From an uncultured Candidatus Saccharibacteria bacterium (GTDB lineage: Bacteria > Patescibacteriota > Doudnabacteria > UBA920), in the NCBI GenBank assembly GCA_964474825.1, contig CAYYWQ010000001.1, positions 677,609 through 741,608 on the forward strand: a stretch of 64,000 nt of DNA. The letters run 5' to 3'. Each line of letters begins with the position of its first letter. Position 1 is the stretch's first letter. Both the position numbers and the translations under genes were made by a program. Below, piece after piece: positions 1-60,964 of this stretch. Below the pieces are notes generated by a model. The model was not told the origin of the DNA and did no database searches. It worked only from the letters and a program-made list of their open reading frames with translations.

Positions 1-3000
1 AGTTCACCGTTCCCCCGCCCTGTAAAATCTGGGTCGGAGTTATAGACGAAATGTTGTAGCCCGGCGGAGGCGTGCAGACCAGAGTTTTGCTGCCTGCGTC
101 CTGGTTGGTCAAAATAGACGGCGCTGAAATGCTAACGCCGTTGAGAGTACAGAGTATTGTACGACTGTATCCGGATACGCTATTGTTAACCGTGCCGGTA
201 GTTGGCTGAGTGGGTTGAGTAGGCTGTGTAACTGTAGCCGTCCCACCCCCGCCGTAGAGCGTTGCAACTTCAGAAGCGGTGAGCGGCCGGCTGAACACAG
301 CGAAGTCGTCCAGAGAGCCGGCGAGGTTGATGCCGTAAGCGTTACCGTACCACGCGCCAATAATGAAATTGCCGAAGGAGTCGGCAACCGAAGGTGCAAT
401 GGCTGCGGAGTTGTCGAGAACGCCGTTAATGTAGCTCCTCATGGTAACACCGTCGTATGTAATGGCCACGTGGTGCCATGAGTTAAGCGGAATGGCCGTG
501 TTGCCATTGAAAATGGCCGTGTTTCCCCCGTCAACATAGGCACGGAGTTTTTGGTTCGCTAGGACTACAAATTCGTAATCTTTGTAGTTATTTGCGCCGA
601 GGTCCTTGTTGGTTGTGAAGATCTGGTGAAATTTAGCCTGACTCTGGTAGAGCCAGAAAATTATTGAGAAATTCTTGGCCGTAAAGGAAATGGGAGAGGT
701 CGGGATAATGTGGCTGCTTGAGCCGTTGAAGTTCGCGGCCTGTTCGAACTTGCCGGAACTGTAGGTGATGTTGGTGGGTGTTGCGTTGTTAGTCCCCTTG
801 CAGGTGTTCGTGTTGCCGTTGAAACTGTAGCAAACCATGAGACTGGGGTCTAAAGCAAGCGAGGTTTGGGAGAACGGGATGGGGCCGGAAACAACTGCCG
901 GAGCTACCGTAAAGGTAGCCGAAGCATTGGACCAGGCTCCGCTGTCGGTGTTGCGAAATTTTAGGTAGTGGTCGCCCGCGGCAAGTTGGACTTTTTGAAG
1001 GACCATACCGGAAGCAGTGACATTGGCGAGTAGGGAGTCAGGATGCCTGCAGCCGGCAGTACAAGCGCCGGTGTCAAACACCCAAGCCTGAATTTTTCCT
1101 AAAACAAAGTTGGTTGCGTTTGTAACCGTAATGTCAAACGGCGTGTTAGCAACCGGGTTAAGCGTTTGAATGTTTCCGGGGGTTGGCGTTGGAGGTTGCT
1201 GGGGCAATACTGAAGGCGGCTGGGCAATACCCGTACCTCCCCCACCACCATAAAGCATGGAAACCTCAGTGGAGGTTAACGGACGGTTGAAGATCGCAAG
1301 GTCATCCAGAGAACCGTTGAAGTTCGCGCCGTAAGCGTCATTAAAGAAAGCACCGACAATGCTGTTGCCGTAAGAGTCAGTTACGGAAGCCGGCACAGCA
1401 CCGGAGTTGTCCAAGACGCCGTCAACGTAGATCTTCATGGTCACGCCGTCGTAGGTAATGGCAACGTGGTGCCAAGTGTTGAGCGAAAGAACAGTGTTGC
1501 CGGTGAAGTACGCCGTGTCGGCGCCGTCAACGTAAACCCTGACTTTCTGAGAATCAATAAGGGCGAACTCGTAGCCCTTGTAGCGGTTGAGCAGTGTATC
1601 CTTGGCAGTTACCAAAATGTCCGCGTACTTGGCGAAGGTCTGGTAAGTCCACACCACAACTGAAAACTGCTTGCTAGGCAGGAACGAAATGGGAGTGGGA
1701 AGGGTGATGTGGCTGTTGCTGCCGTTAAAGCTAGCAGCTTGGCCATGTTTGCCTGCAACATAAGTAATGTTAGCAGGCACGCCGTTGTTGGTGCCCTTGC
1801 TGTCGTTGGTATTGTTGTTGAAGCTGGCGTACCACAACAAGCTCGATTCGGTAGCGAGTGAAGTGGAGGAAAGCGCCCCGGGTACAGAAGGTAGAACGGG
1901 GGCGTTAATTTGCACCGAGCAATTTGCAGTGGCAGCTTGTTTAGGACTGCCGCTGTCCGTTACCGTGAACGTTGCGCTGCCGAAACCGGCAGGCGTGGAA
2001 GTGGTTGTAGCATAGGTGGCGGTTGTGCCGCTACCGGAAACCACTTTGCCCCAAACCCCCGAAACCGCACCCGTGCCGCCCGTGTAACTGCCGGTAAAGA
2101 CAGTCGACTGCCCAGCAGTTATAACAGCCGGGTTGGCGGAGCAGGTGGGAATAAGCGTTGGCGGCGGCTGAAGTCCCGCTGCAGCAGTACGGACGACTGA
2201 GAGATCTTTAACGTGCAAGGTGTTGTCACCCTGCGACTCAATCTCCAAGTATAAGCCGTCCATTAAATCAGAAGCAACGGACCAGGTCGCACCACCGACT
2301 GACATGGACACTGTATTGTTAGTTTTGGTTATAGTTAGAAGTTTCCAGCCTCCGAAGTTACTAGCGGTTGAATTGATCGTCACCAAATTCGGAAAAGTTT
2401 CTACCGAATTCTTGACAGAATCTATGGTCAGAGCGAGGATGGTGGAGTCTTTTAATGCTTTCTTCAAGCTAAAGATAGACTTCCCACCACCAATGTTGGT
2501 GTTGATGAAAAATGTAATATCAACCGGCCCGACGAACACCCGCCGTGTTCTTAAGGTAACACTGCCGTTCACAGTAGCGGGATACATTCCCCCTCCTGAA
2601 AACAAGTAGGTGTGGGAATTAAACAGCAACACTCCTGCGCTTTGGATTGCCGTGGAGTTGCTGATTGTTGCGGAGTCACTGGTCTGCAACCAGTTACCCG
2701 TGTAATCCGCCGACCGAAAACTGTCCTTCAAGTAGCAGTTGGTATCGCCGCCGCATCCAGGGTCGGGAAGGGAGTCTTCCAGATGCTGGAAAATTTGCTT
2801 CTGGGTGTTGGAATTATCGGTCATGTAGGTCGGGAGTAGATGAGCCTTAACCGAATAACCAACATTGACGGCGTTCAATGCTGCGGCACCAAGTGACAAA
2901 CTCGGCACCACAACATATGTGGTAATACAAGACAGCAAGCTGTCTCGAACATTCCAAGGCATGGCGGACTCCGGAACCCGAACAAAAGCCGGAGCGAAGT

Positions 3001-3670
3001 GAATGAAGTCATTGCAGTGCGTGGTATACTTTTGCCGACCGTCAGCCACATTGTTGGCTGGAGTTGCAATACCGACCACGGAAAGGTAGTTGGCGTTGGG
3101 TAACTGTTTACTCTTTCCGTCCGCGTTGCGGAGACGGATACCATATTCCAAGTTAGCGTAAAAGTTTCCCTGGCTGTGACCAACAAGAACAACGTAGTAA
3201 CCCTTGCTCCAAAAGTCCAACACGACTTGATCTAAGGTTGCCAGATCAGAATCGGCTTTGAACTGATCATCCTGGAATCCCAAGGCCGCTGCCATAAAAG
3301 ATTTATGGGCTTGGGACTGTTGGTTAAGCAGGTTAAGATCGTTGAGATACTTGTCGACCTCCTGCATACCAATTTGGTCAATTGCCTGATTGATGTCGCC
3401 TCTGCCAAGCAGAGTCTTGAGCAGGCCGGAACTTTGGTTGTGGACCGCTTTAAATTCCACGCAAGAGGAACTTAGACCAGGGTTAGAGGCCATAAACCTT
3501 GCTTTGATCTGGTCAACAAAGTCTTGCCATATTTTACTATCCGGTACCAAAATCCCATTGGCCCAAACAAATGCAGTCTTGCCGTAGGGGCAATCCTGCG
3601 CCAAAACCAGGCCACTGGACGAAACCAGCAACCAAAACAAAAACAAAATACGGCCTAAGCCGCTTTTCAT
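1..3670 (-). CDS. Large secreted multidomain protein, 5' part only (C-terminus beyond window edge). Contains a signal peptide, a lipase-like alpha/beta-hydrolase domain, a Thr/Gly-rich Ig-like linker and two tandem LamG-type (concanavalin A-like, Laminin_G_3-like) jelly-roll domains.
   Basis: The minus-strand frame is open from ATG at 3668-3670 (AGGAG-like RBS ~9 nt upstream) to position 1 with no stop. It is missing from the ORF track because the stop is outside the window. Features read from my translation: N-terminal MKSGLGRILFLFWLLVSSSGLVLAQ signal; nucleophile-elbow motif VLVGHSQGNFYANLEY; two diverged repeats each ending ...WHHVAITYDGVTM(K/R).Y(V/I)(D/N)GVLDNS....GSLDD(L/F)A(I/V)F(N/S)RPLT..EV..LYGGGG, the hallmark C-terminal strands of LamG_3 domains. 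The region is visibly more GC-rich than its neighbours. Confidence 0.8.
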   Translation of the reverse strand, partial: MKSGLGRILFLFWLLVSSSGLVLAQDCPYGKTAFVWANGILVPDSKIWQDFVDQIKARFMASNPGLSSSCVEFKAVHNQSSGLLKTLLGRGDINQAIDQIGMQEVDKYLNDLNLLNQQSQAHKSFMAAALGFQDDQFKADSDLATLDQVVLDFWSKGYYVVLVGHSQGNFYANLEYGIRLRNADGKSKQLPNANYLSVVGIATPANNVADGRQKYTTHCNDFIHFAPAFVRVPESAMPWNVRDSLLSCITTYVVVPSLSLGAAALNAVNVGYSVKAHLLPTYMTDNSNTQKQIFQHLEDSLPDPGCGGDTNCYLKDSFRSADYTGNWLQTSDSATISNSTAIQSAGVLLFNSHTYLFSGGGMYPATVNGSVTLRTRRVFVGPVDITFFINTNIGGGKSIFSLKKALKDSTILALTIDSVKNSVETFPNLVTINSTASNFGGWKLLTITKTNNTVSMSVGGATWSVASDLMDGLYLEIESQGDNTLHVKDLSVVRTAAAGLQPPPTLIPTCSANPAVITAGQSTVFTGSYTGGTGAVSGVWGKVVSGSGTTATYATTTSTPAGFGSATFTVTDSGSPKQAATANCSVQINAPVLPSVPGALSSTSLATESSLLWYASFNNNTNDSKGTNNGVPANITYVAGKHGQAASFNGSNSHITLPTPISFLPSKQFSVVVWTYQTFAKYADILVTAKDTLLNRYKGYEFALIDSQKVRVYVDGADTAYFTGNTVLSLNTWHHVAITYDGVTMKIYVDGVLDNSGAVPASVTDSYGNSIVGAFFNDAYGANFNGSLDDLAIFNRPLTSTEVSMLYGGGGGTGIAQPPSVLPQQPPTPTPGNIQTLNPVANTPFDITVTNATNFVLGKIQAWVFDTGACTAGCRHPDSLLANVTASGMVLQKVQLAAGDHYLKFRNTDSGAWSNASATFTVAPAVVSGPIPFSQTSLALDPSLMVCYSFNGNTNTCKGTNNATPTNITYSSGKFEQAANFNGSSSHIIPTSPISFTAKNFSIIFWLYQSQAKFHQIFTTNKDLGANNYKDYEFVVLANQKLRAYVDGGNTAIFNGNTAIPLNSWHHVAITYDGVTMRSYINGVLDNSAAIAPSVADSFGNFIIGAWYGNAYGINLAGSLDDFAVFSRPLTASEVATLYGGGGTATVTQPTQPTQPTTGTVNNSVSGYSRTILCTLNGVSISAPSILTNQDAGSKTLVCTPPPGYNISSITPTQILQGGGTVN

Positions 3671-3817
3671 ACTTGTACACTCCTGAAATTCAGATTTGGA
3701 AAACAAAAACACAGACAGTATTAAGAACGCCTGCCTAAATGACTACCCAATGTTTCTCTTTCCCCTCCCGGTTACCAAAAATTATTGATAACCAGTATGA
3801 GGAAAGAGAAAATTTAT

Positions 3818-4648
3818 TTAATATTGATCTTTCACATTCTCACAGGAATAAATCGAACCTACGGGAGTGATATATGGTTTACCTTTGGTATCATTATCTT
3901 CAAATACTTTTTTTCGTTCTGGGGTATTTTTGACCATATACCATAGCTTGTCACTATTTGAATAATCCCTAAGACCTGTACCAAAAACAAGGTGATTGTA
4001 ACAGTCCTGAAAAGTAAACACTGAAACCATTAATTCTTTATAATGTTCATGGTCTCCTGTAGTGGTTATAACATCCTGTTCTTTTTTCACCATAGCCCTT
4101 AGCACTCTCCGTACTTCGTCGTTTCCCGGATACATAAAAACAATTTCTCTTTGCAAATCATCTCTTACTCCATCGTTGTCCGAGTCTATGCCCGCAAGAG
4201 TTGCCTTACCGGCCTCACCAGGATCGGGCGGAAGAGTAATTGAGGTATCCGTAATAGCAAACCTTACTACCGTCGCAGTTTTAAGGCCATTTACATATAG
4301 GCTAAAAGTGATGGTCTGGGGCTTCTTTAACAATTCTGGAGAAACTTGATAGCTTCCGGTAAAACCACCCTCAGTTTGTCTATCTAATAACACCTTTGAA
4401 CTCGAGGTTGTGGTAGCCAAAGATTTCAGAAAGGCACCCCATACAGGTAAACTGCTTTTAATCTTTAAGTTAAAGCTTAAAAGCGTTTGGCTCTTTGTAG
4501 TTGAGACTAAGACAGCCTCTGGACTAACCGTGGCGGAAATTACTTGTGGGGTCTGACTAAGAAAAACCAAACCTAACAATATTACTATTCCCACTGGGAC
4601 TGCCCACTTTAAATGGAATTTAAGCTTTGGTGTCATATTAATACACAA
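3818..4648 (-). CDS. Hypothetical secreted/membrane-anchored protein (N-terminal hydrophobic segment). The start may be the internal Met of MTPKLKF...
   Basis: 276-aa ORF; N-terminal KWAVPVGIVILLGLVFLS hydrophobic stretch; no recognisable catalytic motifs. Confidence 0.5.
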   Translation of the reverse strand: MCINMTPKLKFHLKWAVPVGIVILLGLVFLSQTPQVISATVSPEAVLVSTTKSQTLLSFNLKIKSSLPVWGAFLKSLATTTSSSKVLLDRQTEGGFTGSYQVSPELLKKPQTITFSLYVNGLKTATVVRFAITDTSITLPPDPGEAGKATLAGIDSDNDGVRDDLQREIVFMYPGNDEVRRVLRAMVKKEQDVITTTGDHEHYKELMVSVFTFQDCYNHLVFGTGLRDYSNSDKLWYMVKNTPERKKVFEDNDTKGKPYITPVGSIYSCENVKDQY

Positions 4649-4885
4649 TTAATTTGTTCTCTATATTATACTCTATTTCTGAATTTCGAGAACACTAAAA
4701 ACACTAAAATTTACAGTATCGCATTATGCCTCCTGGGCATTGTTAAAGTACTGTCCATAAGGTAAATTTAGGCTCAACAACATTGTTGTCAATATTAAAC
4801 AAGGCTTACTCTTGTGTTTATTTGTATATTGGTGTAATCTGTTGTCATACTCTAACAGTAAAATCATTATTAAATAATAACCTTT

Positions 4886-5659
4886 ATGGACAGTGTGTTA
4901 GTTAAACAGCTCAAAAACTTCGGACTTTCAGAAAAAGAGTCAAAAATCTACCTTGCTTTGCTGGAATTAGAAATGGCAACCGTATTTGAAGTTGCCAAAC
5001 AGTCAGGCATAAACCGCAGTTCCGCTTACGTGGTTTTAGAGGCCTTAAAGAAAAAAGGATTTGTAGGAATATCTGACGACAAAAAAGTCCGTAAATATAT
5101 TGCAGCTTCCCCGGAAACTCTTCTCCATGCAGCAAAAGCCGCTGCCAAAAAACAGGAAGATACAAAAGAAGGAATTGAATCTATTCTTCCAGAACTAAAG
5201 GCACTGCACAAGTCTACGAAACATAGACCTATAGTAAAAATATTTGAGGGGGAAAGTGGAGCAAGGGAAGTATATTGGGATGTTTTATCAACAAAAACAA
5301 AAAAAATAAAAGTTTTTGCAAACCCCGATAATATATTTAAAAGAATTCCGGATTTTTTAGATTACGATAAAGAAAGAAGTGAGAAAAAAATTAAAATGTT
5401 TGCAATAAGCCCAGCGACCAAAGGAGTGGTAAACATATATAAATACACCCCACCACATCAACCCTATGAAGCTGCTTTAATTCCTGAAAGTAAATTTAAA
5501 TTCACATCGGACATTGGAATATATGAAAATAAAGTCTCTTTTGTTTCTCCAGAGGACAACTTTGGGATAATTATAGAAAGTCAAGAGATTGCGGACATGC
5601 TCGGAAACAGCTTTGATTTGGCATGGGAAGAAGCAAAAAGACTGGATAATAGAACGTAA
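4886..5659 (+). CDS. TrmB-family HTH transcriptional regulator
   Basis: The N-terminus LKNFGLSEKESKIYLALLELEMATVFEVAKQSGINRSSAYVVLEAL matches the TrmB wHTH signature. It lies immediately upstream of, and in the same orientation as, the 7-gene operon. Confidence 0.75.
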   Translation: MDSVLVKQLKNFGLSEKESKIYLALLELEMATVFEVAKQSGINRSSAYVVLEALKKKGFVGISDDKKVRKYIAASPETLLHAAKAAAKKQEDTKEGIESILPELKALHKSTKHRPIVKIFEGESGAREVYWDVLSTKTKKIKVFANPDNIFKRIPDFLDYDKERSEKKIKMFAISPATKGVVNIYKYTPPHQPYEAALIPESKFKFTSDIGIYENKVSFVSPEDNFGIIIESQEIADMLGNSFDLAWEEAKRLDNRT

Positions 5660-5815: not shown

Positions 5816-6829
5816 ATGCGGCCAATAATTTCATTTCCAGATATTGAAGGCTTAAATCGCCTTTCAAAAACTGAAAAAATCAATCTTTTATTGACTGCTG
5901 CCTCTTTAGCTCCTTCCACAATCAACACCCAACCCTGGCTATTCAAGATCGAAGGCAATAGAATAGAATTATTTCTAAACCCTTCCCGCCATCTTCCGGT
6001 TTCTGACTCAAGTGGAAGACAAGCCTATATTAGCCTTGGGGCATGTTGGGCTAATTTAGAGTTACTTGCCCAAAGCTATGGACTAAAATACAGGACCGAA
6101 CAACCAACTAAAATTGCAATAAATAAAGCGGTTGCAAGTTTTATTATTGAAGACTTTAAATCCAGTAACGATGACTCCGAAACTAGGGAGGCGATAATTC
6201 AAAGGCATACCAACAGATTCCCGTTTGAAAAAAAACCCCTTCCTTTAAATTTTGTTCAAAAAATAAAACTGACATCCTCGCCTACTCTTACCCTACATTT
6301 AGCAGAAGATGGGGAAACAAAAAATGAAATAACCCCTATAGTTCTTGATTCGGTATTTGAAATGTTCTCCAAAAAAGACTGGTCTAAAGAATTATCACAT
6401 TGGGTAAAACCCGGCTTAAAAAAATACGAGGACGGTATGCCTGGTTATTATTTAGGAGTTCCCCTGCCAATTTCTTTCCTAATGCCCTTAGTCTTAAAAT
6501 ATGGCTCAGTTGCTAAAATGCAACTACAAACTCATAAAAAAATGCTTAGTTGGGTAGGTGCATACGGAGTCATTACTGCTTCAGAGAATAATCCCTTAAC
6601 TTGGTTTTTAACTGGGGAAATGTTTGAAAAAATTGCTATAGAAGCGCAAAAAAATAACATTAAGGTTGGAATACTAACAGCACCCACCGAAATAGAAACT
6701 TATAGCCAAAAACTAAAAAAAATCTTAGGGACGTCAAATACTCTACAAATGTTTTTCCGCTTAGGCTTTACTGAAAAAACCCCCATTTTCAGTCCTCGCT
6801 TACCAATAAACAAAATAATTAAAGTATGA
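5816..6829 (+). CDS. Nitroreductase-superfamily protein (double-domain Acg/SagB-like size class)
   Basis: Has LAPSTINTQPW (nitroreductase NxQPW motif) and RHTNRFPFE (RxxxRxF FMN-site motif). At 337 aa it is larger than simple NfsB-type enzymes. Confidence 0.7.
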   Translation: MRPIISFPDIEGLNRLSKTEKINLLLTAASLAPSTINTQPWLFKIEGNRIELFLNPSRHLPVSDSSGRQAYISLGACWANLELLAQSYGLKYRTEQPTKIAINKAVASFIIEDFKSSNDDSETREAIIQRHTNRFPFEKKPLPLNFVQKIKLTSSPTLTLHLAEDGETKNEITPIVLDSVFEMFSKKDWSKELSHWVKPGLKKYEDGMPGYYLGVPLPISFLMPLVLKYGSVAKMQLQTHKKMLSWVGAYGVITASENNPLTWFLTGEMFEKIAIEAQKNNIKVGILTAPTEIETYSQKLKKILGTSNTLQMFFRLGFTEKTPIFSPRLPINKIIKV

Positions 6830-7869
6830 ACGGTTCAAAAATTTTACTTAAGGACTTTGACAATCATCGCCTAGTAACTTTCATTTACGACCCCCAATCT
6901 AAGCTACAGGGATTTATTGCTATACATAGAGGCAACGGCAGCAATGTCCCCTCTTTTGGTGCCACAAGATTTGTTTCTTATAACACTCTCACAGATGGCC
7001 TACATGACGCTTTGCGATTATCCCGCTTAATGTCCTATAAGGCTGCAATGGCTGGCTTAAAATATGGAGGAGCAAAAGGAGTAATTCTTATTCCCCAAGT
7101 CCCACATAATAAAAAACAAATTTTACAGGCATACTGCAAAAAAATAAACTACCTTAACGGCCATTTTATTACCGGTGCCGACGTAGGCATTAACGGTTCC
7201 GAGGTAGGAACAATGAGGAAATATAGTAATTTTATTGTTGGTGTAAAAGTTGATCCAGTCAAATATACAGTTTTAGGCATTTTGTACGGCTTACAAGTTT
7301 CACTACAAGAAGTCTTTGGAAACTCAGACATTCAAGAAAAAACATTCTCCATTCTGGGGGTAGGAAAAATTGGCACGGGTATTTTAAAATCAATATATGG
7401 GCAGGCAAAAAAAATCTATATTTCCGACATAGACCAACAACAAATTAAAAAAATTAAGCACGCCTTTCCCAAAATAACGATTCTTTCCCCGCAAGAAATT
7501 TTCAAACAAAAAGTGAATGTGTTTATGCCCTGCGCATTAGGCAACGCATTAAATACTAAAACAATATCAAAACTTAGGTCGGATATAATTTTAGGAGGGG
7601 CAAATAATCAATTAACGAACAGCACTGTTGGGGAATTATTATTTAAACTTGGTATTCTATATGCCCCAGATTATGTTGTAAATGCAGGCGGTTTGATTTC
7701 AGTTGTGGACGAATATGAGAACAAAAATATAGTGGAAACTAGAATTGAAAAACGGCTAAGTAATATTAAGACAGCACTTCGTTCTATTTTTAAACAAAGC
7801 ATGGCAACCGGCATAGCTACAAATATGGTTGCAGATAAAATGGCAGAAAAAATTTTTAACAATCATTAA
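6826..7869 (+). CDS. Glu/Leu/Phe/Val-type amino-acid dehydrogenase family protein (Leu/Phe/Val dehydrogenase-like)
   Basis: PSFGATRFVSY...ALRLSRLMSYKAAMAGLKYGGAKGVI matches the catalytic Lys/Gly-rich region of LeuDH/PheDH. ILGVGKIGTG forms a GxGxxG NAD(P)-binding site. The start overlaps the upstream gene by 4 nt. Confidence 0.75.
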   Translation: MNGSKILLKDFDNHRLVTFIYDPQSKLQGFIAIHRGNGSNVPSFGATRFVSYNTLTDGLHDALRLSRLMSYKAAMAGLKYGGAKGVILIPQVPHNKKQILQAYCKKINYLNGHFITGADVGINGSEVGTMRKYSNFIVGVKVDPVKYTVLGILYGLQVSLQEVFGNSDIQEKTFSILGVGKIGTGILKSIYGQAKKIYISDIDQQQIKKIKHAFPKITILSPQEIFKQKVNVFMPCALGNALNTKTISKLRSDIILGGANNQLTNSTVGELLFKLGILYAPDYVVNAGGLISVVDEYENKNIVETRIEKRLSNIKTALRSIFKQSMATGIATNMVADKMAEKIFNNH

Positions 7870-7888
7870 TAATTAAGAAATAATCTTT

Positions 7889-8704
7889 ATGCAAGCTAGT
7901 GCCGAGAACACAAAAACAAAAGAATGGTGGGAGAGTGAAGGAGGTTTCTTTGGAGACCTCTATAGGCAGGCAGATAATTCTCAAGAAGGCCACCTAAACT
8001 CACCTCAAGACTTGTTAGCCAGAACGGAAAAAGAAGTTAACGGAGTTATAAAATTATGCACCTTAAACCCAGGTGGTGCCGTTATGGACTGCCCATGTGG
8101 TTACGGCAGACACTCTTTAGCCTTGGCACAAAAAGGTTTTCAAGTAACTGGAGTCGACATTAATAAAACTTTTCTCAAACACGACAGGGAAGAACTTGAA
8201 AAAGCCAAGCTTGCCAATTGTCAGTTTGTCGAAAAAGACATGAGGCAAGTGGACTTTAACAATCAATTTAATGCTGTAATAAATATGTTCTACTCTTTTG
8301 GATTTTTCGAAACAGAAGAGGAAAATTTAAAAGTCGCAGCGAATTTTTATAACGCTCTAAAACCAGGTGGAAGGTTTTTAATGCATACGCATATCACTCT
8401 TCCAAAAATCTTAAATGGTGATTACAAAACCCATGAAATCAGAACCCTACGAGACGGAAAGAAGCTAGAATTATTCCGCACATACAACACCCAAACCAAA
8501 AGAGAAGATGGAGAATGGTTTATTTTACATGAGGATGGCAAAAAAGATTCTCTTACCCCCTACTCCGTACGGATTTACAGCCTGGAAGAATATACTGATT
8601 TATGTAAAAAGGCTGGTTTTAAAGAAGTGTTAGCTTATGGAGACTGGTCCGGTACGCCGTACACCGATAAATCTCCAGAATTAATTGCAGTTGCCGTAAA
8701 ATGA
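7889..8704 (+). CDS. Class I SAM-dependent methyltransferase
   Basis: VMDCPCGYGRHSLALAQKGFQVTGVDIN (motif I, DxGxGxG-like) and a downstream acidic motif II. Confidence 0.75.
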   Translation: MQASAENTKTKEWWESEGGFFGDLYRQADNSQEGHLNSPQDLLARTEKEVNGVIKLCTLNPGGAVMDCPCGYGRHSLALAQKGFQVTGVDINKTFLKHDREELEKAKLANCQFVEKDMRQVDFNNQFNAVINMFYSFGFFETEEENLKVAANFYNALKPGGRFLMHTHITLPKILNGDYKTHEIRTLRDGKKLELFRTYNTQTKREDGEWFILHEDGKKDSLTPYSVRIYSLEEYTDLCKKAGFKEVLAYGDWSGTPYTDKSPELIAVAVK

Positions 8705-10272
8705 CTGTAAAAAATTCTTTATTCTCTGGAGCCTTACCGTTTCCCAATTCTGTGGAGTGGAAATCTTTTTATTCTGCGGATTTAAAAACGATGGTCAAAA
8801 AGTTTATAACTTTCTCCCCAAACGTTTTTGAAAAAATGGGAGAGCAAATGGCCTTTAATCTTTTTCACAACATGGCCAAGCGAGTCCCAGCTTATAAAGA
8901 TTACCTGAAGAGTAATAAGATTAACTCGCAAAAAATTAAAACGTTCTCCGATTTAAGATTTATACCGTGGATAGACAAAGAAAATTACCTTAAAAAATAT
9001 CCTCTAAAAGACTTATGCTGGGACGGTAAATTAACAGCGCCAATAATTTCAGCAAGTTCTGGCTCTTCCGGCCAACCATTTTTTTGGCCTAGGTCCTCAG
9101 CAATAGAAAAAGAAACCTCCTACATATACGAATTATTTTTACGTTTTTTGTTTGATATAGGCAAAGTACCCACTTTGTTAATAAACGGTTTTTCTATGGG
9201 TATATACATTGGGGGCACGTTCACTCTTAACTGTTCAATGAGGCTTCATCAGAAAGGTTATCCTTTAACAATAATGACCCCCGGTATCCATCAGGAAGAA
9301 ATTCTAAAAATTGTAGAAAAAATTGGTGGAAACTATGGGCAGATAATACTGGGTGGTTATCCTCCTTTTATTAGGGACATTTTAGATGCAGGCGAAAAAA
9401 GAGGTATTAACTGGAAAAAGAAAAATATAAAATTTATATTTGCTTCGGAATCCTTAAGCGAAGAATTTCGCTCTTACCTTTATTCCAAAGTTGGTATCTC
9501 TAACTCTTCATATTTGACTTCTTCAATGAACCTTTACGGAACCGCCGACGCCGCAGTTGCCGGTCACGAAATGCCCTTGAGCATACTTATTCGCAAGCTT
9601 TTTAGTAAAAACGCAGAACGTACCCAAGATTTCTTCTCCAAGACCTACGTGCCTTCTTTGAACCAATATTATCCATTTTTTAAATATTTCCAGACTGAAA
9701 ACGGTGAGTTAATTTTTTCCACTTCCCATAATGAAATTCCATTACTAAAATATAACATCCATGACAGGGGTAACATAATTTCATATGAAAATATGCTGGA
9801 GATAGCTAGGTCCTTTGGTTATAACACCAATGATTTAAACAAATTAGTTGGCAAACAATTGCTCTGGCGTTTACCATATGTTTATCTTTACGGCCGGAGC
9901 GATTTCACTACAACTCTTTACGGTTTAAATATCTACCCTGAAAATATAAAGGCCGCACTGGAAACTCCTGCGATCCGCCATCTCTGCAGCGGAAAGTTTG
10001 TTATGGAAACAAAAAATCGTGCAAAGACTCAAAAGCAGTATCTGGCGGTTCGTGTAGAACTCGCAAGTGGAATAAAGCCCTCTAAGTCTTTAGAGCGCAA
10101 ATTCCAGCAAGTAATTGTAACTACTTTACGCAAAAAAAATTCCGAATTTAACCACTTATTTCATTCAATAAAAAACCAAGCCCTGCCTGACATAAGCTTG
10201 AATATTAAAGGCGAAGGCGTTTACTTTAAACCCAGCATCAAACAACAATGGGTCAATAAAATCAAATCTTGA
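8701..10272 (+). CDS. Adenylate-forming enzyme of the phenylacetate-CoA ligase (PaaK) / coenzyme F390 synthetase / CapK-like family
   Basis: ISASSGSSGQPFFWPRS matches the P-loop-like AMP-binding motif (T/S-SG-T/S-xGxP). LYGTADAAVAG matches the core motif. The ~520-aa size is consistent with the ANL-superfamily PaaK-like subgroup. Overlaps the upstream gene by 4 nt. Confidence 0.6.
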   Translation: MTVKNSLFSGALPFPNSVEWKSFYSADLKTMVKKFITFSPNVFEKMGEQMAFNLFHNMAKRVPAYKDYLKSNKINSQKIKTFSDLRFIPWIDKENYLKKYPLKDLCWDGKLTAPIISASSGSSGQPFFWPRSSAIEKETSYIYELFLRFLFDIGKVPTLLINGFSMGIYIGGTFTLNCSMRLHQKGYPLTIMTPGIHQEEILKIVEKIGGNYGQIILGGYPPFIRDILDAGEKRGINWKKKNIKFIFASESLSEEFRSYLYSKVGISNSSYLTSSMNLYGTADAAVAGHEMPLSILIRKLFSKNAERTQDFFSKTYVPSLNQYYPFFKYFQTENGELIFSTSHNEIPLLKYNIHDRGNIISYENMLEIARSFGYNTNDLNKLVGKQLLWRLPYVYLYGRSDFTTTLYGLNIYPENIKAALETPAIRHLCSGKFVMETKNRAKTQKQYLAVRVELASGIKPSKSLERKFQQVIVTTLRKKNSEFNHLFHSIKNQALPDISLNIKGEGVYFKPSIKQQWVNKIKS

Positions 10273-10276
10273 AGCC

Positions 10277-11311
10277 ATGCTAAAACCCTACTTCTTTAAA
10301 AAACAAAAACCAACCCGAGTTGAACTAAAAAAATTTCCGGTTAAAAACATGGTGGATATTTTTACCACGCAAAATCGGGAATTGTTTGACGTTTTAAATC
10401 CTCATGCTAAATTCGAACAAAATTACAAAAAAAACCTAGAAAAATTTTTAAAAAACAGAGTTGGGCAATGGATTTATTTTCCTTGGAACCAAACCCTTCT
10501 GCACACCCTTCTTTCTAATGAGCTCTTTTTATTAAGAACCAATCGAAACAGAAATCTTATTAATAACGAGGAGCAGAATACTCTTGCTAATTTTACAGCG
10601 GCTGTAATTGGGCTTTCTATTGGCAACTCCATAGCCTTAAACCTACTCTATAATGGCATTTCCAGAAAAATTAAAATAGCAGATTTAGATACTTTAGAAA
10701 CATCTAATCTAAACCGTGTCAGAGCAAGCCTACAGGATGTTGGCAAAAGCAAAATCTCAATTACTGCAGCGCAAATTTATGAAATTGATCCCTACGCGTC
10801 TATTTATGCCTTTGAAAAAGGAATTCAAGACAAAACTTTAAAACAACTCTTTGCAAACCCAAAACCAAAAATTATATTCGAAGCAATTGATGATTTAAAA
10901 ATGAAAATCCAAATCCGATTAGCAGCAAAAAAGGCTAAAATCCCGGTTGTAATGTTGACTAATTTAGGAAATAATATACTTATAGATGTAGAACGCTATG
11001 ACTTAGATAAAAATTTACAACTCTTCAACGGCCTAATAGGAAAAGCTGGCAAAGAGATCCTAAATTCAACAATATCCGAGCAGGATAAACAACGTTATGC
11101 CGTAGCAATAGTTGGGAAAGAAAATGTTCCTTTAAAAGCATTAGATTCATTACGGGAAATTAATAGAACATTAGTTGGCAGGCCCCAACTAATGTCAACG
11201 GTAACCATTGGTAGCGGCATAGCCTCGCTTATAGCCAAAAAGATTGCTCTAGGTGAACCTGTCAAAAGCGGCCGCAGTTTAATCAAGCTAGAACAGTTGA
11301 TTAATTTTTAA
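10277..11311 (+). CDS. ThiF/MoeB/E1-like nucleotidyltransferase-domain protein
   Basis: AAVIGLSIGNSIALNLLYNGISRKIKIADLDTLETSNLNR matches the ThiF Rossmann GxGxxG segment and the downstream D..E.SNLNRQ motif. The N-terminal ~100 aa are an extension. Confidence 0.65.
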   Translation: MLKPYFFKKQKPTRVELKKFPVKNMVDIFTTQNRELFDVLNPHAKFEQNYKKNLEKFLKNRVGQWIYFPWNQTLLHTLLSNELFLLRTNRNRNLINNEEQNTLANFTAAVIGLSIGNSIALNLLYNGISRKIKIADLDTLETSNLNRVRASLQDVGKSKISITAAQIYEIDPYASIYAFEKGIQDKTLKQLFANPKPKIIFEAIDDLKMKIQIRLAAKKAKIPVVMLTNLGNNILIDVERYDLDKNLQLFNGLIGKAGKEILNSTISEQDKQRYAVAIVGKENVPLKALDSLREINRTLVGRPQLMSTVTIGSGIASLIAKKIALGEPVKSGRSLIKLEQLINF

Positions 11312-11315
11312 TCTT

Positions 11316-12197
11316 ATGGACACGAGTGAAAAAAAACTTCTTGAAAGTCTTGGAAATATTAAAGCAGAAATTAAGCAATTTACGACAGAAGATGTTACAA
11401 TAAACTATGTTAAAGCAGGAACAGGTTTTCCACTATTACTAATTCATGGAGCCAACTTTGGTTGGGGTCAATGGCATACCTTAATCACCGATCTTTCACA
11501 AAACTACACTGTGTATGCTGTAGACCTTCCAGGATTTGGCAACTCCACTTCCTTAAACTATGAAAAACTGGAATTTAACCGTCAGCTAGTTAAACCCATG
11601 GCATCTTTTGTTGAAAAAATGGGTTTGCAAAATAGTTTTGTAATGGGCCATTCTTTAGGAGCTTGGGTTGGGATGAAATTGGTTTTAGATGGTTATGCGA
11701 ATTTTAAAAAAATAATATTAGCAAATCCTTTAGGGTTCTCAAAAGATACACCACTACAATATAAATTACTTGGCCTACGCTGGGTGGCCAAACTGCTCGC
11801 AAAAACTGTCCTAAAAATAAGGCCGGGAAACATAAAAAAATTTTTAAATATTCCACTACACACTAAAGTCAGCTTCCTTCCAGAATTTACTGATTATTAC
11901 CATTCCATATCAAAAGGCGAATTCAGGCATCCTTTTTACTTATTTAACCGTATAGCTGGATTTAAAAAAGTTAACAAAGAATTAATACTTGACAGCAAGC
12001 TCTCACAAATTCATCAACCAGTTTTAATTATTGGCGGAGAGTATGATCCCATTGTATCTTTAAACCATAAACAAATAGAACTAATAAACCTACTACCTGA
12101 AGCAAAGATTAAAGTAATAAAAGGGGTTGGTCACGTCCCTTTTTTTGAAAATAGAAACGAATTTTATAAAGTCATTAATGAATTTTTAAAAAAATAG
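11316..12197 (+). CDS. Alpha/beta-fold hydrolase
   Basis: LLLIHGANFGWGQW (HG oxyanion region), VMGHSLGAWVG (GxSxG nucleophile elbow), C-terminal GHVPFFE (His of the catalytic triad). Confidence 0.75.
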   Translation: MDTSEKKLLESLGNIKAEIKQFTTEDVTINYVKAGTGFPLLLIHGANFGWGQWHTLITDLSQNYTVYAVDLPGFGNSTSLNYEKLEFNRQLVKPMASFVEKMGLQNSFVMGHSLGAWVGMKLVLDGYANFKKIILANPLGFSKDTPLQYKLLGLRWVAKLLAKTVLKIRPGNIKKFLNIPLHTKVSFLPEFTDYYHSISKGEFRHPFYLFNRIAGFKKVNKELILDSKLSQIHQPVLIIGGEYDPIVSLNHKQIELINLLPEAKIKVIKGVGHVPFFENRNEFYKVINEFLKK

Positions 12198-23804: not shown

Positions 23805-24524
23805 CTAGGCGACCTTTGCTTTTGGTAACGATTTCACCTTTGCGAGCCCGATGGACTCGAGCAGGCAAATAACAGGCCATGCGGGGTCGATTTCGCCGGC
23901 TTCGTGCGCGAACCGCGCCGAGGTCGGATACTGATGGTGGTTGTTATGCAAGCCCTCCCCGCCGGTCAAAAACGCGACCGACTGCAGGTTGGTTGCGAGG
24001 TTGTCGTAGTTCCGGTAGCCCACCATGTGACAGATGCTGTTGATCGCCGAATTCAGCAGAATGTAGAAAATTACGTGGAATCCCCAAGCAAAGAATCCCC
24101 ACATCCAGCCGAACATCAGCATAAAAATCGCCAAACCGCCGAGGACGCCGAACTTGATGAACGGCAGGCGGTCCAGTATGTCCGGTCGGTAATCCGGAGC
24201 ATACTTGGCAACCATAGCAGCGTCCTTCGTCGCCGTGCGATAGTAAAAAAAGTTACCGAACAGCACGTTCCACATTCCGTACAAGTACGGACTGTGCGGA
24301 TCCCCTTCCTTGTCGGAAAACTGGTGATGCTTACGGTGCACCGCCACCCACTCCCGGGGCATAATCCCGGTAAAAAGAGCGAGCTCCAAGTGCATTACCA
24401 GTGCGAGTGCCGGGTGAATATCCAGACCCCTGTGCGTCAGGTGCCTGTGCAGGTAGATGGTCGTCAACAAGACCGACGTCTGCAAAATTCCGAGCGTAAT
24501 CAAAAACATCAAAAACGGACTCAT
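23805..24524 (-). CDS. Membrane fatty-acid desaturase (acyl-CoA/acyl-lipid Delta9 desaturase-like), in a GC-rich island
   Basis: Three His boxes typical of the integral-membrane desaturases: HRHLTHR, HRKHHQF, HNNHHQYP. A strong GAGGAGG RBS precedes the ATG. GC content is clearly higher than in the flanking regions. Confidence 0.8.
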   Translation of the reverse strand: MSPFLMFLITLGILQTSVLLTTIYLHRHLTHRGLDIHPALALVMHLELALFTGIMPREWVAVHRKHHQFSDKEGDPHSPYLYGMWNVLFGNFFYYRTATKDAAMVAKYAPDYRPDILDRLPFIKFGVLGGLAIFMLMFGWMWGFFAWGFHVIFYILLNSAINSICHMVGYRNYDNLATNLQSVAFLTGGEGLHNNHHQYPTSARFAHEAGEIDPAWPVICLLESIGLAKVKSLPKAKVA

Positions 24525-24611
24525 TTGTATTGAATCCTCCTCACGTTAAGTATAACAGCAACCCAAACTAATTACGAAAAATTTCCAACAAAAAAACCGT
24601 AACTTGCGGTT

Positions 24612-44287: not shown

Positions 44288-46471
44288 TCAAATTTTATTA
44301 TTTTTTATTCTCAAACTATTTCCAACAACACTAAAACTGGAAAAGGCCATGGCTGCGCCGGCTATCATGGGGTTTAAATACCCTAGTGCTGCTAGCGGAA
44401 TAGCCGCTACATTATAGAAGAAGGCCCAAAATAAATTTTGTTTAATAATGCTAAAAGTTTTTTGGGACAATTGCAGTGCCTGAACAACCTTTAGAGGACT
44501 TCCTTTTACCAAAACAAGCTCACCGGATTCAATTGCAATGTCTGTGCCTGTGCCAATAGCTATACCTAGGTCGGCTTGCACTAAGGCCGGAGCGTCGTTA
44601 ATGCCGTCGCCAACAAATGCAACTTTTTTCCCTTGAGCCTGAAGTTTTTTTACTTCCGCGGCTTTGTCCTGTGGCAAGACCTCTGCCAGAACTTGATCTA
44701 CCCCCGCCTCTTTAGCAATAGCCTGCGCGGTTCTTTGATTGTCCCCGCTAATCATAATACTCGTAATACCCATAGCCTTTAGTTTACCTATGGCTTCCTT
44801 GGCGTCAGGCTTTAAAGTATCGGCAATCGCAATAACGCCAATCATCTGCTTGTTTTTTACAACGCAGACAACTGTTTTTGCCTCATGTTCCAAACTTTCA
44901 ATTTGGGATTTTAAATTATTTTCTATGTCTAGTTCTAAAATTAATCTCGGACTGCCTATTAAAATTTCATCTTGGCCAACTTTCGCGGAAACTCCTTTAC
45001 CTGCCAAATTAAGAAAATCCAATGAAATCGGCAAAATAATTTTGCTTTCTGTAGCAAAACGAAAAACAGCTTGGGCTAACGGATGTTCTGAATGTTTTTC
45101 AACGGAAGCCGCAAAAGCCAATACCTGATTTTTTTCTATTCCTGATAACGGAACAACATCGGTAACCGCAGGTTTACCTTCTGTTAATGTTCCGGTTTTG
45201 TCGAACATAACCACATCTATATGTTTAGCCTTTTCCAAAGCCTGCCCATTTTTTATAAGTATCCCTTTTTTAGCTCCCTCCCCCGTTCCTACTAAAATAG
45301 CTACGGGAGTTGCAAGACCCAAGGCACAAGGACAAGCAATAACCAAAACCGCCACCGCGGCAATTAAACTTCTGCCAATATCTCCGCTAATAAAAAACCA
45401 AACCCCAAAAGTTCCCAAGGCTAACACAATTACTATGGGAACAAAAATTCCGGCAATTTTGTCGGCCAATTTTTGTATGGGGGCTTTTTTTACCTGCGCG
45501 TCTTCCACCATTTTAATTATTTGCGAAAGCACTGTGTCTTTACCGACTTTTAGTGTCTGGATTTCCACGGAGCCGTCTATATTTATGGTGGCGCCAAAAA
45601 TTTCGTCGCCTTCTTTTTTGCTTACAGGCATACTCTCCCCTGTTAACATAGATTCGTCTACAGTTGTTTGGCCTTTAAAAATTTTTCCGTCTACCGGATA
45701 CTTTTCTCCGGGCTTCACCGCTAAAATATCGCCCACCCGAACCTGTTCAATTGCAATTTCGCTTATGTTGCCGTCTTTGATCAAATGCGCGGATTTGGCA
45801 CCCAATTGCATTAGCTTACTAATTGCCTGGCTGGCCTGACCGCGGCTCTTAGCTTCCAAATACCTCCCAAGCAAAAGAAAAGCAGTTATAATGGCAGCAG
45901 TTTCAAAATAAAACTCTTGTCGTCCGGCAAACATTGCCCAAAAACTAAACGCCATGGCTGAGGCAGTTCCCAAAGAAATAAGGGTATCCATATTCGCCGC
46001 AAACTGCCTAAGTAATTTCAAAGTCATAATATGGAATTCTTTACCCACTATAAAAACAGTAATAACGCTTAAAATTGCTTGCAGCCAAATACTGGCATTT
46101 AAAAAACCAATTTGCCAAGGCAAATTTATTTTCATCATTGCTAAAACCAAAGTAGGCACAGCAAAAACTAAAGATACAATTGCTTTATTGCGCGCACTAC
46201 TAACCTCCTTTTCGCCAGCCATGCCCCCATGCTTGTGTTCAATTTCTTGGCGATGATGAGAATGCATTTCAACATGGTAACCATTTTTTTCCACGGCCTT
46301 ATACAGATCGTGTTCGGAAACCTGGGTTTCATCAAACTCCACTGAAGCTGAACGCATTGCGTAATTAACCGAAGCGCTTTTTACCCCCGTTAATTTATTT
46401 AAAGAATTTTCATTACGCGTAACGCAGGAAGCGCAGTGCATGTCCGGAATAAGAAATTTTGTTGTTGTCAT
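44288..46471 (-). CDS. copA: Copper-translocating P1B-type ATPase
   Basis: N-terminal HMA domain with MHCASC. TM CPC motif [12 protein letters not shown]. Phosphorylation site [17 protein letters not shown] hinge. Confidence 0.95.
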
Positions 46472-46482
46472 ATATTTTAAAA

Positions 46483-47814
46483 TTAATCAATTACAGTAAA
46501 TTTGCCTCGGTACATTCCCATTGAACAAGAAAAGGCAATCTCACCGGTTTTAGTGGGAGTAAACTCTATAATATTCTCGCCGGATTTTAGCGGCTGACTA
46601 ATGTTATAAGCCGGCATCATTATGTAACTGGCGCATGTAAATTGGCTAGTGGAATTAATTACCCAACGGACAAGTTTGCCTTTTTTTATTGTAAATTGAT
46701 TTGGGGAATAGCCTCGGCTACCCTGGGTCATGATAATTTCTTGATAATCACCTTTAGGCAAATTTGCAGTTTGGTTCGTGGCCGCAGACCCCGATGCAGA
46801 AACAAACACTACGCGGCTTGCATTGGAAATATTAAACACTCCTAGTAAAATTACAGCAAGTCCGGCGGTGGCAAAAAATAGCTTAGCCTTACTGCCTTTA
46901 AAAGCGGAAGACAGTCCCCCAACACTAAGCAAACCTGGCGCGGTCCCTACGGCAAACAAAGACATTATTAACGCGCCGGAAACGAAACTGCCCGTACTAA
47001 TTGCGTACAACTGCATAGCCTGCGTAAAGCCGCAGGGCAAAAAGAAAGTTAACATGCCGCCAATAAAAGCAGATTTATGGCTGTATTCTTTGTCGCTTTG
47101 TTTTATTCCCAAAAACCTGGAAACAAATTTTGGCATGGTTATATTTACTCTCTGCAAAATTGGAAAAATTTCTATAAGCTTTAGGCCAAGCAATATCATA
47201 ACCCCTCCTACAAAAAGAGTAACAATGGCCATAACTTTCGCGGAAGGTTGAAGCGCCCCGCCAACAAACCCTATAAGGCCACCTAACAGGGCAAACCCAA
47301 TAATTCTGCCTAAATTAAAAAACAAATGGGGACGAAATTTTTGCATTGCCGTAGCTTCAAGGTGAAGCTCTGCGTGCCTTGCTGATAAAGCTAAAACAAG
47401 TCCGCCAATTAAAGCCATACAAGAAGAAACACCGGCAACTAAACCTATAACCAAAGACATGGCAACGCTCTGTTGATTAAAGCCCCCTACAACACTATCC
47501 ACACCAAAAAATTGGGTCGCTATAAACAAAAAGAGTAAAATTGCTCCTGCATTTACCAAGAAAAAATAATCCCGTGGATTTCTGGAAAACCACTGCCTGC
47601 TGTCTTCCTGTCCAACCGTGTAACCTGCGTCTTCCACTGCTTTACTAATTTGACCAAGTGACGGTTTGGAGTCCTCATACCAAATTTTCGCCCTGCCTGA
47701 AACGTGACTAACATCGCATTTTTTTATTTCCTTAACGTTTTTTAAATTTTCCTCAATAGTCATTTCGCAAGACTTACAGTGCATGCCCTTTATGGGCACA
47801 ATAATTTTTTGCAT
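46483..47814 (-). CDS. HMA-domain membrane protein: N-terminal metal-binding domain (MHCKSC), a polytopic permease-like domain, and a C-terminal cupredoxin-like domain
   Basis: [15 protein letters not shown] (HMA). About 8 hydrophobic helices including a conserved FLPCGF segment. C-terminal [14 protein letters not shown] resembles a C-x-M-x-M copper site. Confidence 0.55.
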
Positions 47815-60238: not shown

Positions 60239-60964
60239 CTACTTAATCAGAGGGTATCCATAACGGGTACGTAGTACATACCCAGCTTCGGAGAGGATTA
60301 CTGTGCCGTCGGCCTTGACCAGATGCCGGAGCGTGCAGCGCAACTTCTTTTCAAGCCGCCATCCCAGTGGATTTTGCTTGGCAAGTTCCTCCATTTTTGG
60401 CTCTCGGGAATCCTTGAAGGATTTCACCAAAACAGCCGCCGAGGCATCCGCAATCAACCCGAGCTGCCGTGCCGCTTCAATAACGAGCGCGCGAACGTCA
60501 AAATGGGCCCTCTCTTCCCATACTACCGTCCGGCCCGGATTGCTCAGCACCCGGGCGTTCATTACCGTAGGCAGCAAGTTGGCAATTGCAGCCACCTCGG
60601 ACTTTGAAAGGTAGAGTTTTACTTCTACCCCCATTGCCGCGACATCCTCGTGGGATACCGCGGGAAGGACTACAATGTCGGCAACCGTAGCCCCACCACT
60701 GCCCCGAGTGAAATACTCAGAGCGGCAGTGGCGCCACATAAAAAATGCGGCGTCATAAATCTGCACCCGAGTAGAGGCCAGCCACTCCACTCCCTGTTCT
60801 GTTTTCGTACTCTCTCTCCACACTTCAAATCCTCCGCTCTCCAGAGGCGTCAAAGTGTACCCCTCCCAAGTAGAGGGGAAAAGATTTTTGGACCATTGCT
60901 GGATGGTCACAAAACCACTGGCTTGGCGAACCTTCCGCCAATTCTCCAGTTCTTCGTTGTTCAT
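60239..60964 (-). CDS. Orphan GC-rich hypothetical protein (241 aa), compositionally foreign
   Basis: A GGAGAAGGAG RBS precedes the ATG. GC-rich codons contrast with the neighbours. No TM segment or signal and no motif I can name. It has its own terminator. Confidence 0.5.
   Translation of the reverse strand: MNNEELENWRKVRQASGFVTIQQWSKNLFPSTWEGYTLTPLESGGFEVWRESTKTEQGVEWLASTRVQIYDAAFFMWRHCRSEYFTRGSGGATVADIVVLPAVSHEDVAAMGVEVKLYLSKSEVAAIANLLPTVMNARVLSNPGRTVVWEERAHFDVRALVIEAARQLGLIADASAAVLVKSFKDSREPKMEELAKQNPLGWRLEKKLRCTLRHLVKADGTVILSEAGYVLRTRYGYPLIK

Follow-up and report, generated by a model that had tools for sequence, protein, structure and literature searches.

The stretch of DNA analysed here (the window) comprises 64,000 nucleotides (nt) of contig CAYYWQ010000001.1 from an uncultured bacterium and begins with two genes on the minus strand. 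One, called the hydrolase gene below, encodes a large secreted protein in which a hydrolase-like head domain is followed by lectin-type and immunoglobulin (Ig)-like modules. The other lies upstream of it, encodes a small protein with a membrane anchor and is called the partner gene. A prediction made earlier from the sequence alone (the original prediction) had described a frame of more than 1,220 codons running on the minus strand from an ATG at position 3670 to the window edge, and 1,223 codons without a stop were indeed found between this ATG and base 2. Its absence from the list of open reading frames (ORFs), which had been pointed out at the time, is an artefact of the window edge without biological meaning, as ORFs running off the source were not listed. 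The BipA/TypA protein encoded in the window is 83-88% identical to BipA of Candidatus Doudnabacteria metagenome-assembled genomes (MAGs); the organism is therefore a bacterium of the candidate phyla radiation (CPR; Patescibacteria). The features of the locus are collected in Table 1.

Table 1. Features of the hydrolase gene and the partner gene, with positions in the window and amino acid (aa) positions in the respective protein
Feature	Position	Strand	Basis
Secreted multidomain hydrolase gene, first 1,223 of 1,421 codons	1..3670	-	Open frame; match to P0005
Shine-Dalgarno-like AGGAG, 9 nt before ATG 3670	3680..3684	-	Direct sequence reading
Predicted Sec-type signal peptide, aa 1-24 (MKSGLGRILFLFWLLVSSSGLVLA, followed by QD)	3599..3670	-	Hydrophobic segment aa 4-26; VLA motif
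Head, aa 25-310, alpha/beta-hydrolase-like serine hydrolase of an uncurated family	2741..3598	-	AF2, Foldseek, relatives
GHSQG nucleophile elbow, aa 164-168 (Ser166 codon 3173-3175)	3167..3181	-	Conservation; model
Asp221 codon, proposed catalytic acid	3008..3010	-	Conserved in 340/340; follows model strand aa 215-217
His277 codon, proposed catalytic base, 5 residues before invariant Tyr282	2840..2842	-	Conservation
Domain 2, aa 311-497, beta-sandwich, probably ConA-like	2180..2740	-	AF2 all-beta; Foldseek
Ig-like module A, aa 505-592, Thr/Gly/Ser-rich, two Cys	1895..2158	-	Internal repeat; weak PDB match
LamG unit 1, aa 601-808	1247..1870	-	Pfam Laminin_G_3 at aa 649-804, profile positions 1-151 of 151
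Spacer module B, aa 830-925, presumed beta-rich	896..1183	-	No Pfam match; no significant internal repeat
LamG unit 2, aa 933-1140, old duplicate of unit 1	251..874	-	Second Pfam stretch; PDB 5hon, 4qvs
Pro/Thr linker and start of further Ig-like modules, aa 1141-1223 (onward to aa 1421)	2..250	-	P0005 sequence
Partner gene, 272 aa, with N-terminal transmembrane anchor, Ig-like region and conserved C-terminal domain	3818..4636	-	ORF; family search
Partner transmembrane anchor, aa 9-31	4544..4612	-	Kyte-Doolittle windows >1.6
Partner conserved core, aa 128-272: LPPDPGEAGKxTLxGIDSDxDGVRDD ... C ... NTxxR ... C	3821..4255	-	Invariant columns, alignment A7
Promoter-like site TTGACA-16-TAAATT upstream of the partner gene, possible operon promoter	4765..4792	-	Consensus scan only

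The original prediction had suggested that the gene be completed beyond the window. An exhaustive protein search gave a public protein of 1,421 aa, P0005, which is 100% identical over all 1,223 residues in the window and is encoded on a single NCBI contig of 1,211,450 bp that also bears the other genes of the window. Because P0005 is complete at 1,421 aa, the hydrolase gene is intact and is cut solely by the window. The other 198 codons are outside the window, and the residues they encode form more Ig-like modules. The protein was rightly described as secreted: the N-terminus carries a hydrophobic core with a probable cleavage site between VLA and QD, and homologues share a conserved N-terminus. 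The LPxT[GAS] motif is not found anywhere in the 1,421-aa product, nor is the C-terminal combination of LPXTG and a hydrophobic segment that marks a sortase-anchored adhesin. There is no hydrophobic segment besides the signal peptide in the 1,223 residues of the window and none is visible in the last 198, and the full-length enzyme has no lipobox. A scan of the genome contigs for relatives of the hydrolase protein found none.

The head domain belongs to a large family that the curated libraries do not contain. Neither Pfam (E up to 10) nor NCBIfam nor the PDB sequences gave a match, and when the PDB sequences were searched, the single protein and two profiles of the head found chance-level matches only (phytohaemagglutinin, ColH, Tip-alpha). 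A first word-indexed search gave four relatives; a profile built from these was used in an exhaustive search, which gave 1,517 representatives of clusters at 50% identity with E <=1e-3, 236 of them with E <=1e-10, and the notion of a tiny family was thereby overturned. A second word-indexed search with a diverse head profile yielded 291 proteins, almost all named "hypothetical protein", whose sources include Aquabacterium, Desulfuromonadales, Sulfurospirillum, Sulfurimonas and Thiodiazotropha. With ~480-500 aa, most members of the family are short and have no adhesin-like arrays; the modules fused to the head in relatives are CBM96, DNRLRE, PKD and Lcl_C. A literature search for the motif HSQGN gave nothing relevant.

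The proposed catalytic residues are nearly invariant in this family. Ser166 is conserved in 339 of 340 sequences, Asp221 in all 340, and a His 4-9 residues before the invariant Tyr282 is present in 326 of 327; in the MAFFT alignments A3, A4 and A6 His277 itself is at least 90% conserved. The HSQG motif is 98-100% conserved, and Asn38-Gly39, located after the first strand, is found in 314 of 314 sequences (Gly39 in 313 of 314). An AF2 model of the head based on an alignment of 123 sequences (pLDDT 80.3, pTM 0.82) has an alternating beta-alpha-beta order, in which a strand (aa 158-165) ends at Ser166 and a helix begins at aa 168, a strand-turn-helix elbow. Four helices form an insert of ~70 aa (aa ~83-155) before the nucleophile strand and a variable insert of ~50 aa separates the Asp from the His. 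The order nucleophile-acid-His and the positions of the loops fit the secondary structure of the model, as in the alpha/beta-hydrolases.

Comparison of the model with the PDB by Foldseek gave a top 40 made up almost entirely of cutinases, lipases, feruloyl esterases and PlaB or DDHD phospholipases, with probabilities up to 0.98; the named lipases are those of A. fulgidus (2zyr), B. subtilis (LipA, 1i6w/1t4m), Rhizomucor and Yarrowia, and Legionella PlaB is also present. A Pfam scan of 90 head relatives gave scattered weak matches, all to families of the alpha/beta-hydrolase clan (CL0028). The most frequent was DUF3089, found in 5 of the 90 with a best E of 2.5e-5, and the others were Abhydrolase_6 (5 members), PE-PPE, DUF676, LIDHydrolase and Tle3. 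The window protein gave no match to DUF3089 (PF11288), either at the gathering threshold or with E up to 10, and 85 of the 90 relatives were also without a match. The GHSQG motif alone is not diagnostic because polyketide synthase acyltransferases also carry it. From the model and the conserved residues it is concluded that the head is, by prediction, a serine hydrolase of the alpha/beta-hydrolase fold and represents a large uncurated lineage. Ester hydrolysis is its likely chemistry, and on the same grounds the label serine esterase for this putative enzyme is well supported, while the label lipase is not established. Of the lipase/esterase-type domain originally proposed, the hydrolase class thus stands, through the model, its weak structural matches and the near-invariant Ser, Asp and His, and not through any domain call for the window protein, and the lipase part is unproven.

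The partner gene was missed by the original prediction, being outside its coordinates, and is the most informative feature of the locus. It is separated from the hydrolase gene by 147 nt, and no terminator-like site occurs between its stop codon and the ATG at 3670. Its product is 61% identical to that of the gene immediately upstream of the Doudnabacteria orthologue P0001, and the C-terminal half is 52% identical to the product of the gene upstream of P0004. The partner family comprises at least 735 proteins with a common core of ~135 aa, in which two Cys are invariant, and has no match in Pfam, NCBIfam or the PDB. CPR members have transmembrane anchors at the N-terminus and several Gram-negative members have lipobox-like sequences there, from which the partner is predicted to be extracytoplasmic and membrane-tethered.

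Linkage of the two genes was examined at 80 metagenomic loci chosen by the head motif alone. A partner ORF was found directly upstream of the head gene and on the same strand in 64 of them, usually abutting or overlapping, and in 25 of the 26 loci that had flanks of 1 kb or more on each side. Adjacency was also found at six of eight hand-picked loci, including Minisyncoccota, Pseudomonadota and Helicobacteraceae. In the Pseudomonadota MAG the two genes overlap. In the Minisyncoccota MAG (L091, 5001-6749) two tandem partner paralogues of 288 and 266 aa are divergent from a single head-family protein of 1,105 aa that carries Bact_surface_Ig-like and CBM96 domains. In the Helicobacteraceae MAG (JAIRNH010000012.1; L088:3098-6032) the head forms the C-terminal domain (aa 370-606) of a protein with RCC1/WD40-like repeats, and the partner has a duplicated core and sits downstream of the head gene, not upstream. 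Head and partner are thus a near-obligate gene pair across CPR, Campylobacterota and Pseudomonadota.

Six of 253 family proteins (P0127, P0051, P0147, P0205, P0250 and P0158) are fusions of the two, always with the partner first and the head second. At one locus (L122, 3264-5747) both domains are encoded in an ORF of 828 aa with no Met and no signal peptide between them; this fusion further comprises a signal of the lipoprotein type, two repeated beta-domains and another beta-domain at the C-terminus.

Two further observations were made at the loci of relatives. Next to the gene of the homologue P0002, and after it, comes one for a protein of 995 aa that matches PGAP1, LCAT and Lipase_2 (L006:2724-5522), so that two different secreted lipase-like proteins are encoded in tandem. 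Kinship between this protein and the head is not claimed, as hhalign matched the nucleophile elbow only, with a probability of 7.7%. A member of the partner family, P0285, is recorded on a contig of 231,850 bp, the length of the P0002 contig, outside the listed 6-kb flanks.

Tight linkage of this kind is also expected of a toxin and its immunity protein, in which case the head would be a membrane-attacking (phospho)lipase directed against a host or competitor and the partner would shield the producer's own membrane. An immunity protein would have to act outside the cytoplasm, which is where the partner, with its membrane or lipid anchor, is placed, and the tandem partners at L091 and an orphan partner at L090 are patterns common for immunity genes; the weak Tle3 match in one head-family member and the presence of PlaB among the fold matches point the same way. 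Recurrent fusion of partner and head in one polypeptide is hard to reconcile with such a pair, and fast divergence, usual in immunity proteins, is not a trait of the partner, which with its invariant DSDxDGxRDD core is strongly conserved from phylum to phylum. Modules of secretion systems or polymorphic toxins were not observed among the window ORFs scanned, and the PADLOC defence-system models matched neither head nor partner. A toxin-immunity pair is considered quite improbable, and because of the fusions and the high conservation of the partner across phyla, a foldase or pro-domain function is preferred.

The part of the hydrolase protein downstream of the head consists of beta-rich modules. 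Domain 2 opens with a conserved LPDPGC...C motif, contains RTRRVF, and directly follows the head in ~24 of 253 family proteins, all of the closest subfamily. Its Foldseek matches are L-type lectins, GH16, PL7 and CBM66 with E ~1e-6, obtained with a moderate-confidence AF2 model (a run on aa 1-503 with a 5-sequence alignment, pLDDT 50, used cautiously and for domain 2 alone). It is probably a third ConA-like domain, overlooked in the original prediction. The two LamG domains described there were recovered with Pfam Laminin_G_3 (PF13385; E 4.1e-53, 180 bits, cutoff 27.6) in two stretches, the best at aa 649-804 and the other at ~aa 960-1140. When the whole protein and five separate segments were searched against Pfam and NCBIfam, nothing was found for aa 1-503, for the spacer at aa 830-925 or for the C-terminal 84 aa in the window. 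Ig-like spacers are present as described: module A recurs at aa 1236-1335 of the full protein with 34% identity (z 8.6 against shuffles) and has a weak PDB match to phage decoration proteins (E 0.067). The combination of a hydrolase head with LamG had been called uncommon, and only 1 of the 90 head-family members scanned with Pfam carries Laminin_G_3.

The two LamG units correspond in a register of +996 nt and are 57-59% identical at the protein level. At the DNA level the identity is 64% over the whole unit and 70% in the best ungapped 300 nt, and values of 75-77% are reached solely in patches of 60 nt. The internal duplication reported earlier is therefore real, while its identity of 75% was overstated and its age underestimated; the intervals paired at the time, 215-480 and 1290-1560, are ~80 nt out of register and align at 49%. 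Third codon positions are 46% identical, by which the duplication is old, and a recent duplication or an instability of copy number was rejected on this ground.

Independent short-read contigs of the locus in the Logan assemblies SRR14271365 (L001) and SRR14271372 (L002) break within the hydrolase gene, that of L001 at ~aa 521, where the repetitive Ig/LamG region begins. Assemblers may routinely truncate this gene.

The kinds of modules fused to the head make a carbohydrate esterase (CE) the main rival with respect to substrate. The head would then be an acetyl- or feruloyl-type esterase with a cutinase-like CE5-type fold that deacylates polysaccharides or cell-wall glycans, the ConA-like and LamG domains would be carbohydrate-binding modules (CBMs), and the partner would still be accessory. 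The best fold matches of the head include cutinases and feruloyl esterases, the fused modules are of glycan-binding types (Laminin_G_3, CBM96, DNRLRE, PKD, Lcl_C), and domain 2 resembles lectins, GH16 and CBMs. The characterised DUF3089 (family XV) enzymes prefer short acyl chains (PMC4431682). The long helical insert before the nucleophile strand is more like a lipase-type lid, and no CE family model was matched in Pfam scans of the window protein and 90 relatives. No carbohydrate esterase is known to need a dedicated membrane-tethered partner. This substrate class is considered unlikely, without being far-fetched.

The full-length enzyme is without LPXTG, transmembrane segment and lipobox, and a partner with a membrane anchor and an Ig-like stalk could be a docking or anchoring subunit that keeps the secreted enzyme on the producer surface. 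The protein, with its many Ig-like and lectin modules, would then be mainly an adhesin in which catalysis is secondary or lost. The catalytic residues are essentially invariant over ~340 sequences, which favours an active enzyme, and most members of the family retain the partner although they are short and have no adhesin-like arrays. A role in adhesion alone, without catalysis, is unlikely in view of the strong conservation of the triad, and the docking explanation as a whole is considered very improbable.

The hydrolase gene is GC-rich compared with its surroundings, as had been noted. Its GC content is 0.516 and its GC content at third codon positions (GC3) 0.594, against a GC3 of 0.26-0.39 in nine adjacent genes and 0.34 in the partner gene. 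GC3 is 0.55-0.62 in every part of the gene, and the excess shows that the GC richness is not just a matter of amino acid composition. Orthologues in other CPR genomes, with a GC3 of 0.54 (L003:1180-2673), 0.60 (L007:3373-4533) and 0.48 (L006:545-2614), are also richer than most of their adjacent genes; the contrast is seen at the orthologues P0001 and P0004 and is weaker at P0002, and the conserved partner has no excess. Because the orthologues in three other genomes share it, the GC3 excess is a property of the gene across the lineage and not the mark of one recent transfer. Recent horizontal transfer as the sole cause of the high GC was accordingly rejected, the orthologues sharing the excess while the partner does not.

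Two other ORFs in the window have a high GC3. One of 241 aa (60239-60964, minus strand) has no Pfam or NCBIfam match and a GC3 of 0.59, matching the signature of the hydrolase gene. The other, of 239 aa (23805-24524, minus strand), resembles DesA-family fatty-acid desaturases (profile of 385 positions), has a GC3 of 0.73, very high for the genome, and is overlapped on the opposite strand by an ORF of 209 aa (23904-24533); it may be a truncated or foreign gene.

Taken together, the two genes are read as an operon that encodes an exported ester-cleaving head with a dedicated partner, foldase- or pro-domain-like, and with targeting by lectin modules. This reading is considered probable, though not by much. 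In this Candidatus Doudnabacteria bacterium the product of the first gene would be a small protein tethered on the outer face of the cytoplasmic membrane and that of the second a Sec-exported enzyme of 1,421 aa. The head (aa 25-310) would act as a minimal alpha/beta-hydrolase cleaving carboxylic esters via Ser166-Asp221-His277, with N38-G39 at the expected place of the oxyanion hole behind the first strand, and with a helical cap that may gate the active site. The substrate would most likely be a lipid or another acyl ester. The partner would meet the enzyme as it emerges from Sec and would act on it directly, as a dedicated foldase or detached pro-domain that either shapes the hydrolase or holds it in check, by analogy of function with Lif, the foldase of Pseudomonas and Burkholderia lipases, or with the propeptides of lipases. 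The three ConA-like/LamG beta-sandwiches and the Ig-like spacers probably bind glycans or other surface ligands and would hold the enzyme on a target surface, plausibly the envelope of a host in the case of a CPR cell.

Several points weigh against the operon reading. The similarity of the head to solved hydrolases is weak (best E 2.3e-3, TM-score 0.2-0.5 in either normalisation), and with E values up to 10 allowed the window protein still matches no hydrolase Pfam model. LamG here and CBM96, DNRLRE and PKD in relatives are modules that typically accompany carbohydrate-active enzymes and do not point to a lipase. The role proposed for the partner has linkage and fusion as its only sources, and the partner showed no similarity to Lif or any known chaperone in Pfam and PDB searches. 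At L090 a partner gene occurs with no head gene nearby.

A more far-reaching proposal is put forward tentatively and is, taken in all its parts, doubtful. Head and partner would constitute an undescribed, widespread two-component secreted-hydrolase system in which the membrane-tethered partner with its DxDxDG loop is an obligate, dedicated foldase or detachable pro-domain for a new alpha/beta-hydrolase family, an independent reinvention of the lipase-Lif principle, and the CPR enzyme, through the addition of lectin and Ig modules, would have become a host-surface-targeted device for harvesting lipids or acyl groups.

Considered as a secreted hydrolase with lectin modules, the hydrolase protein adds a member to kinds that are already familiar. 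That two uncurated families are paired almost obligately, and sometimes fused, is neither described in the literature searched nor recorded in the curated libraries used. Both families are sizeable, with ~1,500 clusters at 50% identity for the head and at least 735 proteins for the partner, and neither is represented in Pfam, NCBIfam or the PDB. The pairing provides a testable hypothesis for both, an enzyme with a dedicated helper, and an annotation rule could replace two "hypothetical protein" labels. If the foldase reading is true, an active enzyme may require co-expression of the partner. To enzymology the head would add a new lineage of minimal alpha/beta-hydrolases, in which the helical cap is in an unusual place. 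In the biology of CPR bacteria, an esterase or lipase that is exported by Sec and bears three lectin-type domains is a candidate for how lipid-auxotrophic, surface-attached cells act on the envelope of a partner cell.

Two other groups of genes in the window deserve mention. A divergent TrmB-like regulator (4886-5659) is followed on the plus strand by a compact co-directional set (5816-12197) encoding an Acg/Rv3131-like FMN oxidoreductase, a ScyB-like tryptophan (ELFV) dehydrogenase, an S-adenosylmethionine (SAM) methyltransferase, a PaaK-like adenylating ligase, a ThiF/Rv1355c-like adenylyltransferase and an Abhydrolase_1 enzyme. Within this set, the products resembling ThiF and nitroreductases match the two halves of the fused Rv1355c family (NF005901). 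The set looks like a small-molecule biosynthetic or modification cluster, unusual in a CPR genome of ~1.2 Mb. On the minus strand, 44288-47814 holds a pair for the handling of heavy metals, a P-type ATPase with an HMA domain beside an HMA-DsbD_2-cupredoxin fusion.

Among known systems, an extracellular arabinanase (5hon) and an S-layer-domain protein (4qvs) have LamG-like modules similar to the LamG units found here. Like bacterial surface proteins with LamG/Laminin_G_3 modules, the hydrolase protein carries full-length domains of this type, two in number; the difference is their attachment to the head family, which is rare. The best structural matches of the head are cutinases (5x88, 8jct, the Fusarium 1cus type) and B. 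subtilis LipA (1i6w), with probabilities of 0.84-0.98 and a TM-score normalised to the target of 0.37-0.50. These share with the modelled head a small alpha/beta core of 5-6 strands, a nucleophile elbow and the order Ser...Asp...His. The head differs from them in sequence (identity 13-17%, E no better than 2e-3), in the four-helix insert of ~70 aa and the Asp-His insert of ~50 aa, and in the large lectin/Ig arrays that follow it.

DUF3089 corresponds to lipolytic family XV, whose characterised members are described as secreted short-chain esterases with a GHSQG pentapeptide (PMC4431682). These enzymes (Est10, EstD2, Est5S, EstGK1, EstZ3, EstWSD) are secreted alpha/beta-hydrolases with GHSQG, as is predicted for the head; they are single-domain proteins of ~370 aa, whereas the hydrolase here is a multidomain protein of 1,421 aa. 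The head has a dedicated partner gene, and none is mentioned for family XV in the parts of PMC4431682 consulted.

The Tle/Tli pairs of the type VI secretion system (T6SS) also combine a lipase-type alpha/beta-hydrolase with an adjacent gene for a small extracytoplasmic, often lipid-anchored protein. They differ from the present pair in that the enzyme here has a Sec signal peptide and that partner-enzyme fusions exist. The Tle/Tli families gave no match except the one weak Tle3 match in 1 of 90 head members, and no T6SS, VgrG or PAAR domains were found among the ~26 window ORFs scanned, a scan that was not an exhaustive search of the window. A T6SS is not known from CPR bacteria.

An analogy, and one of function only, is seen with the lipase-Lif operons of families I.1 and I.2 in Pseudomonas and Burkholderia. 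In both cases a secreted lipase-type hydrolase is encoded beside an outward-facing, dedicated partner that an N-terminal transmembrane segment anchors in the cytoplasmic membrane, and Burkholderia lipases also carry GHSQG. There is no sequence similarity of the head to family I lipases or of the partner to Lif, and the partner and 37 relatives gave no lipase-chaperone or other relevant Pfam match at E up to 0.1 and no PDB relative. The gene order is reversed, the partner being first here, and the core of the partner, of ~135 aa, contains a loop of the DxDxDG type and a pair of Cys, whereas Lif is a helical scaffold of ~250 aa.

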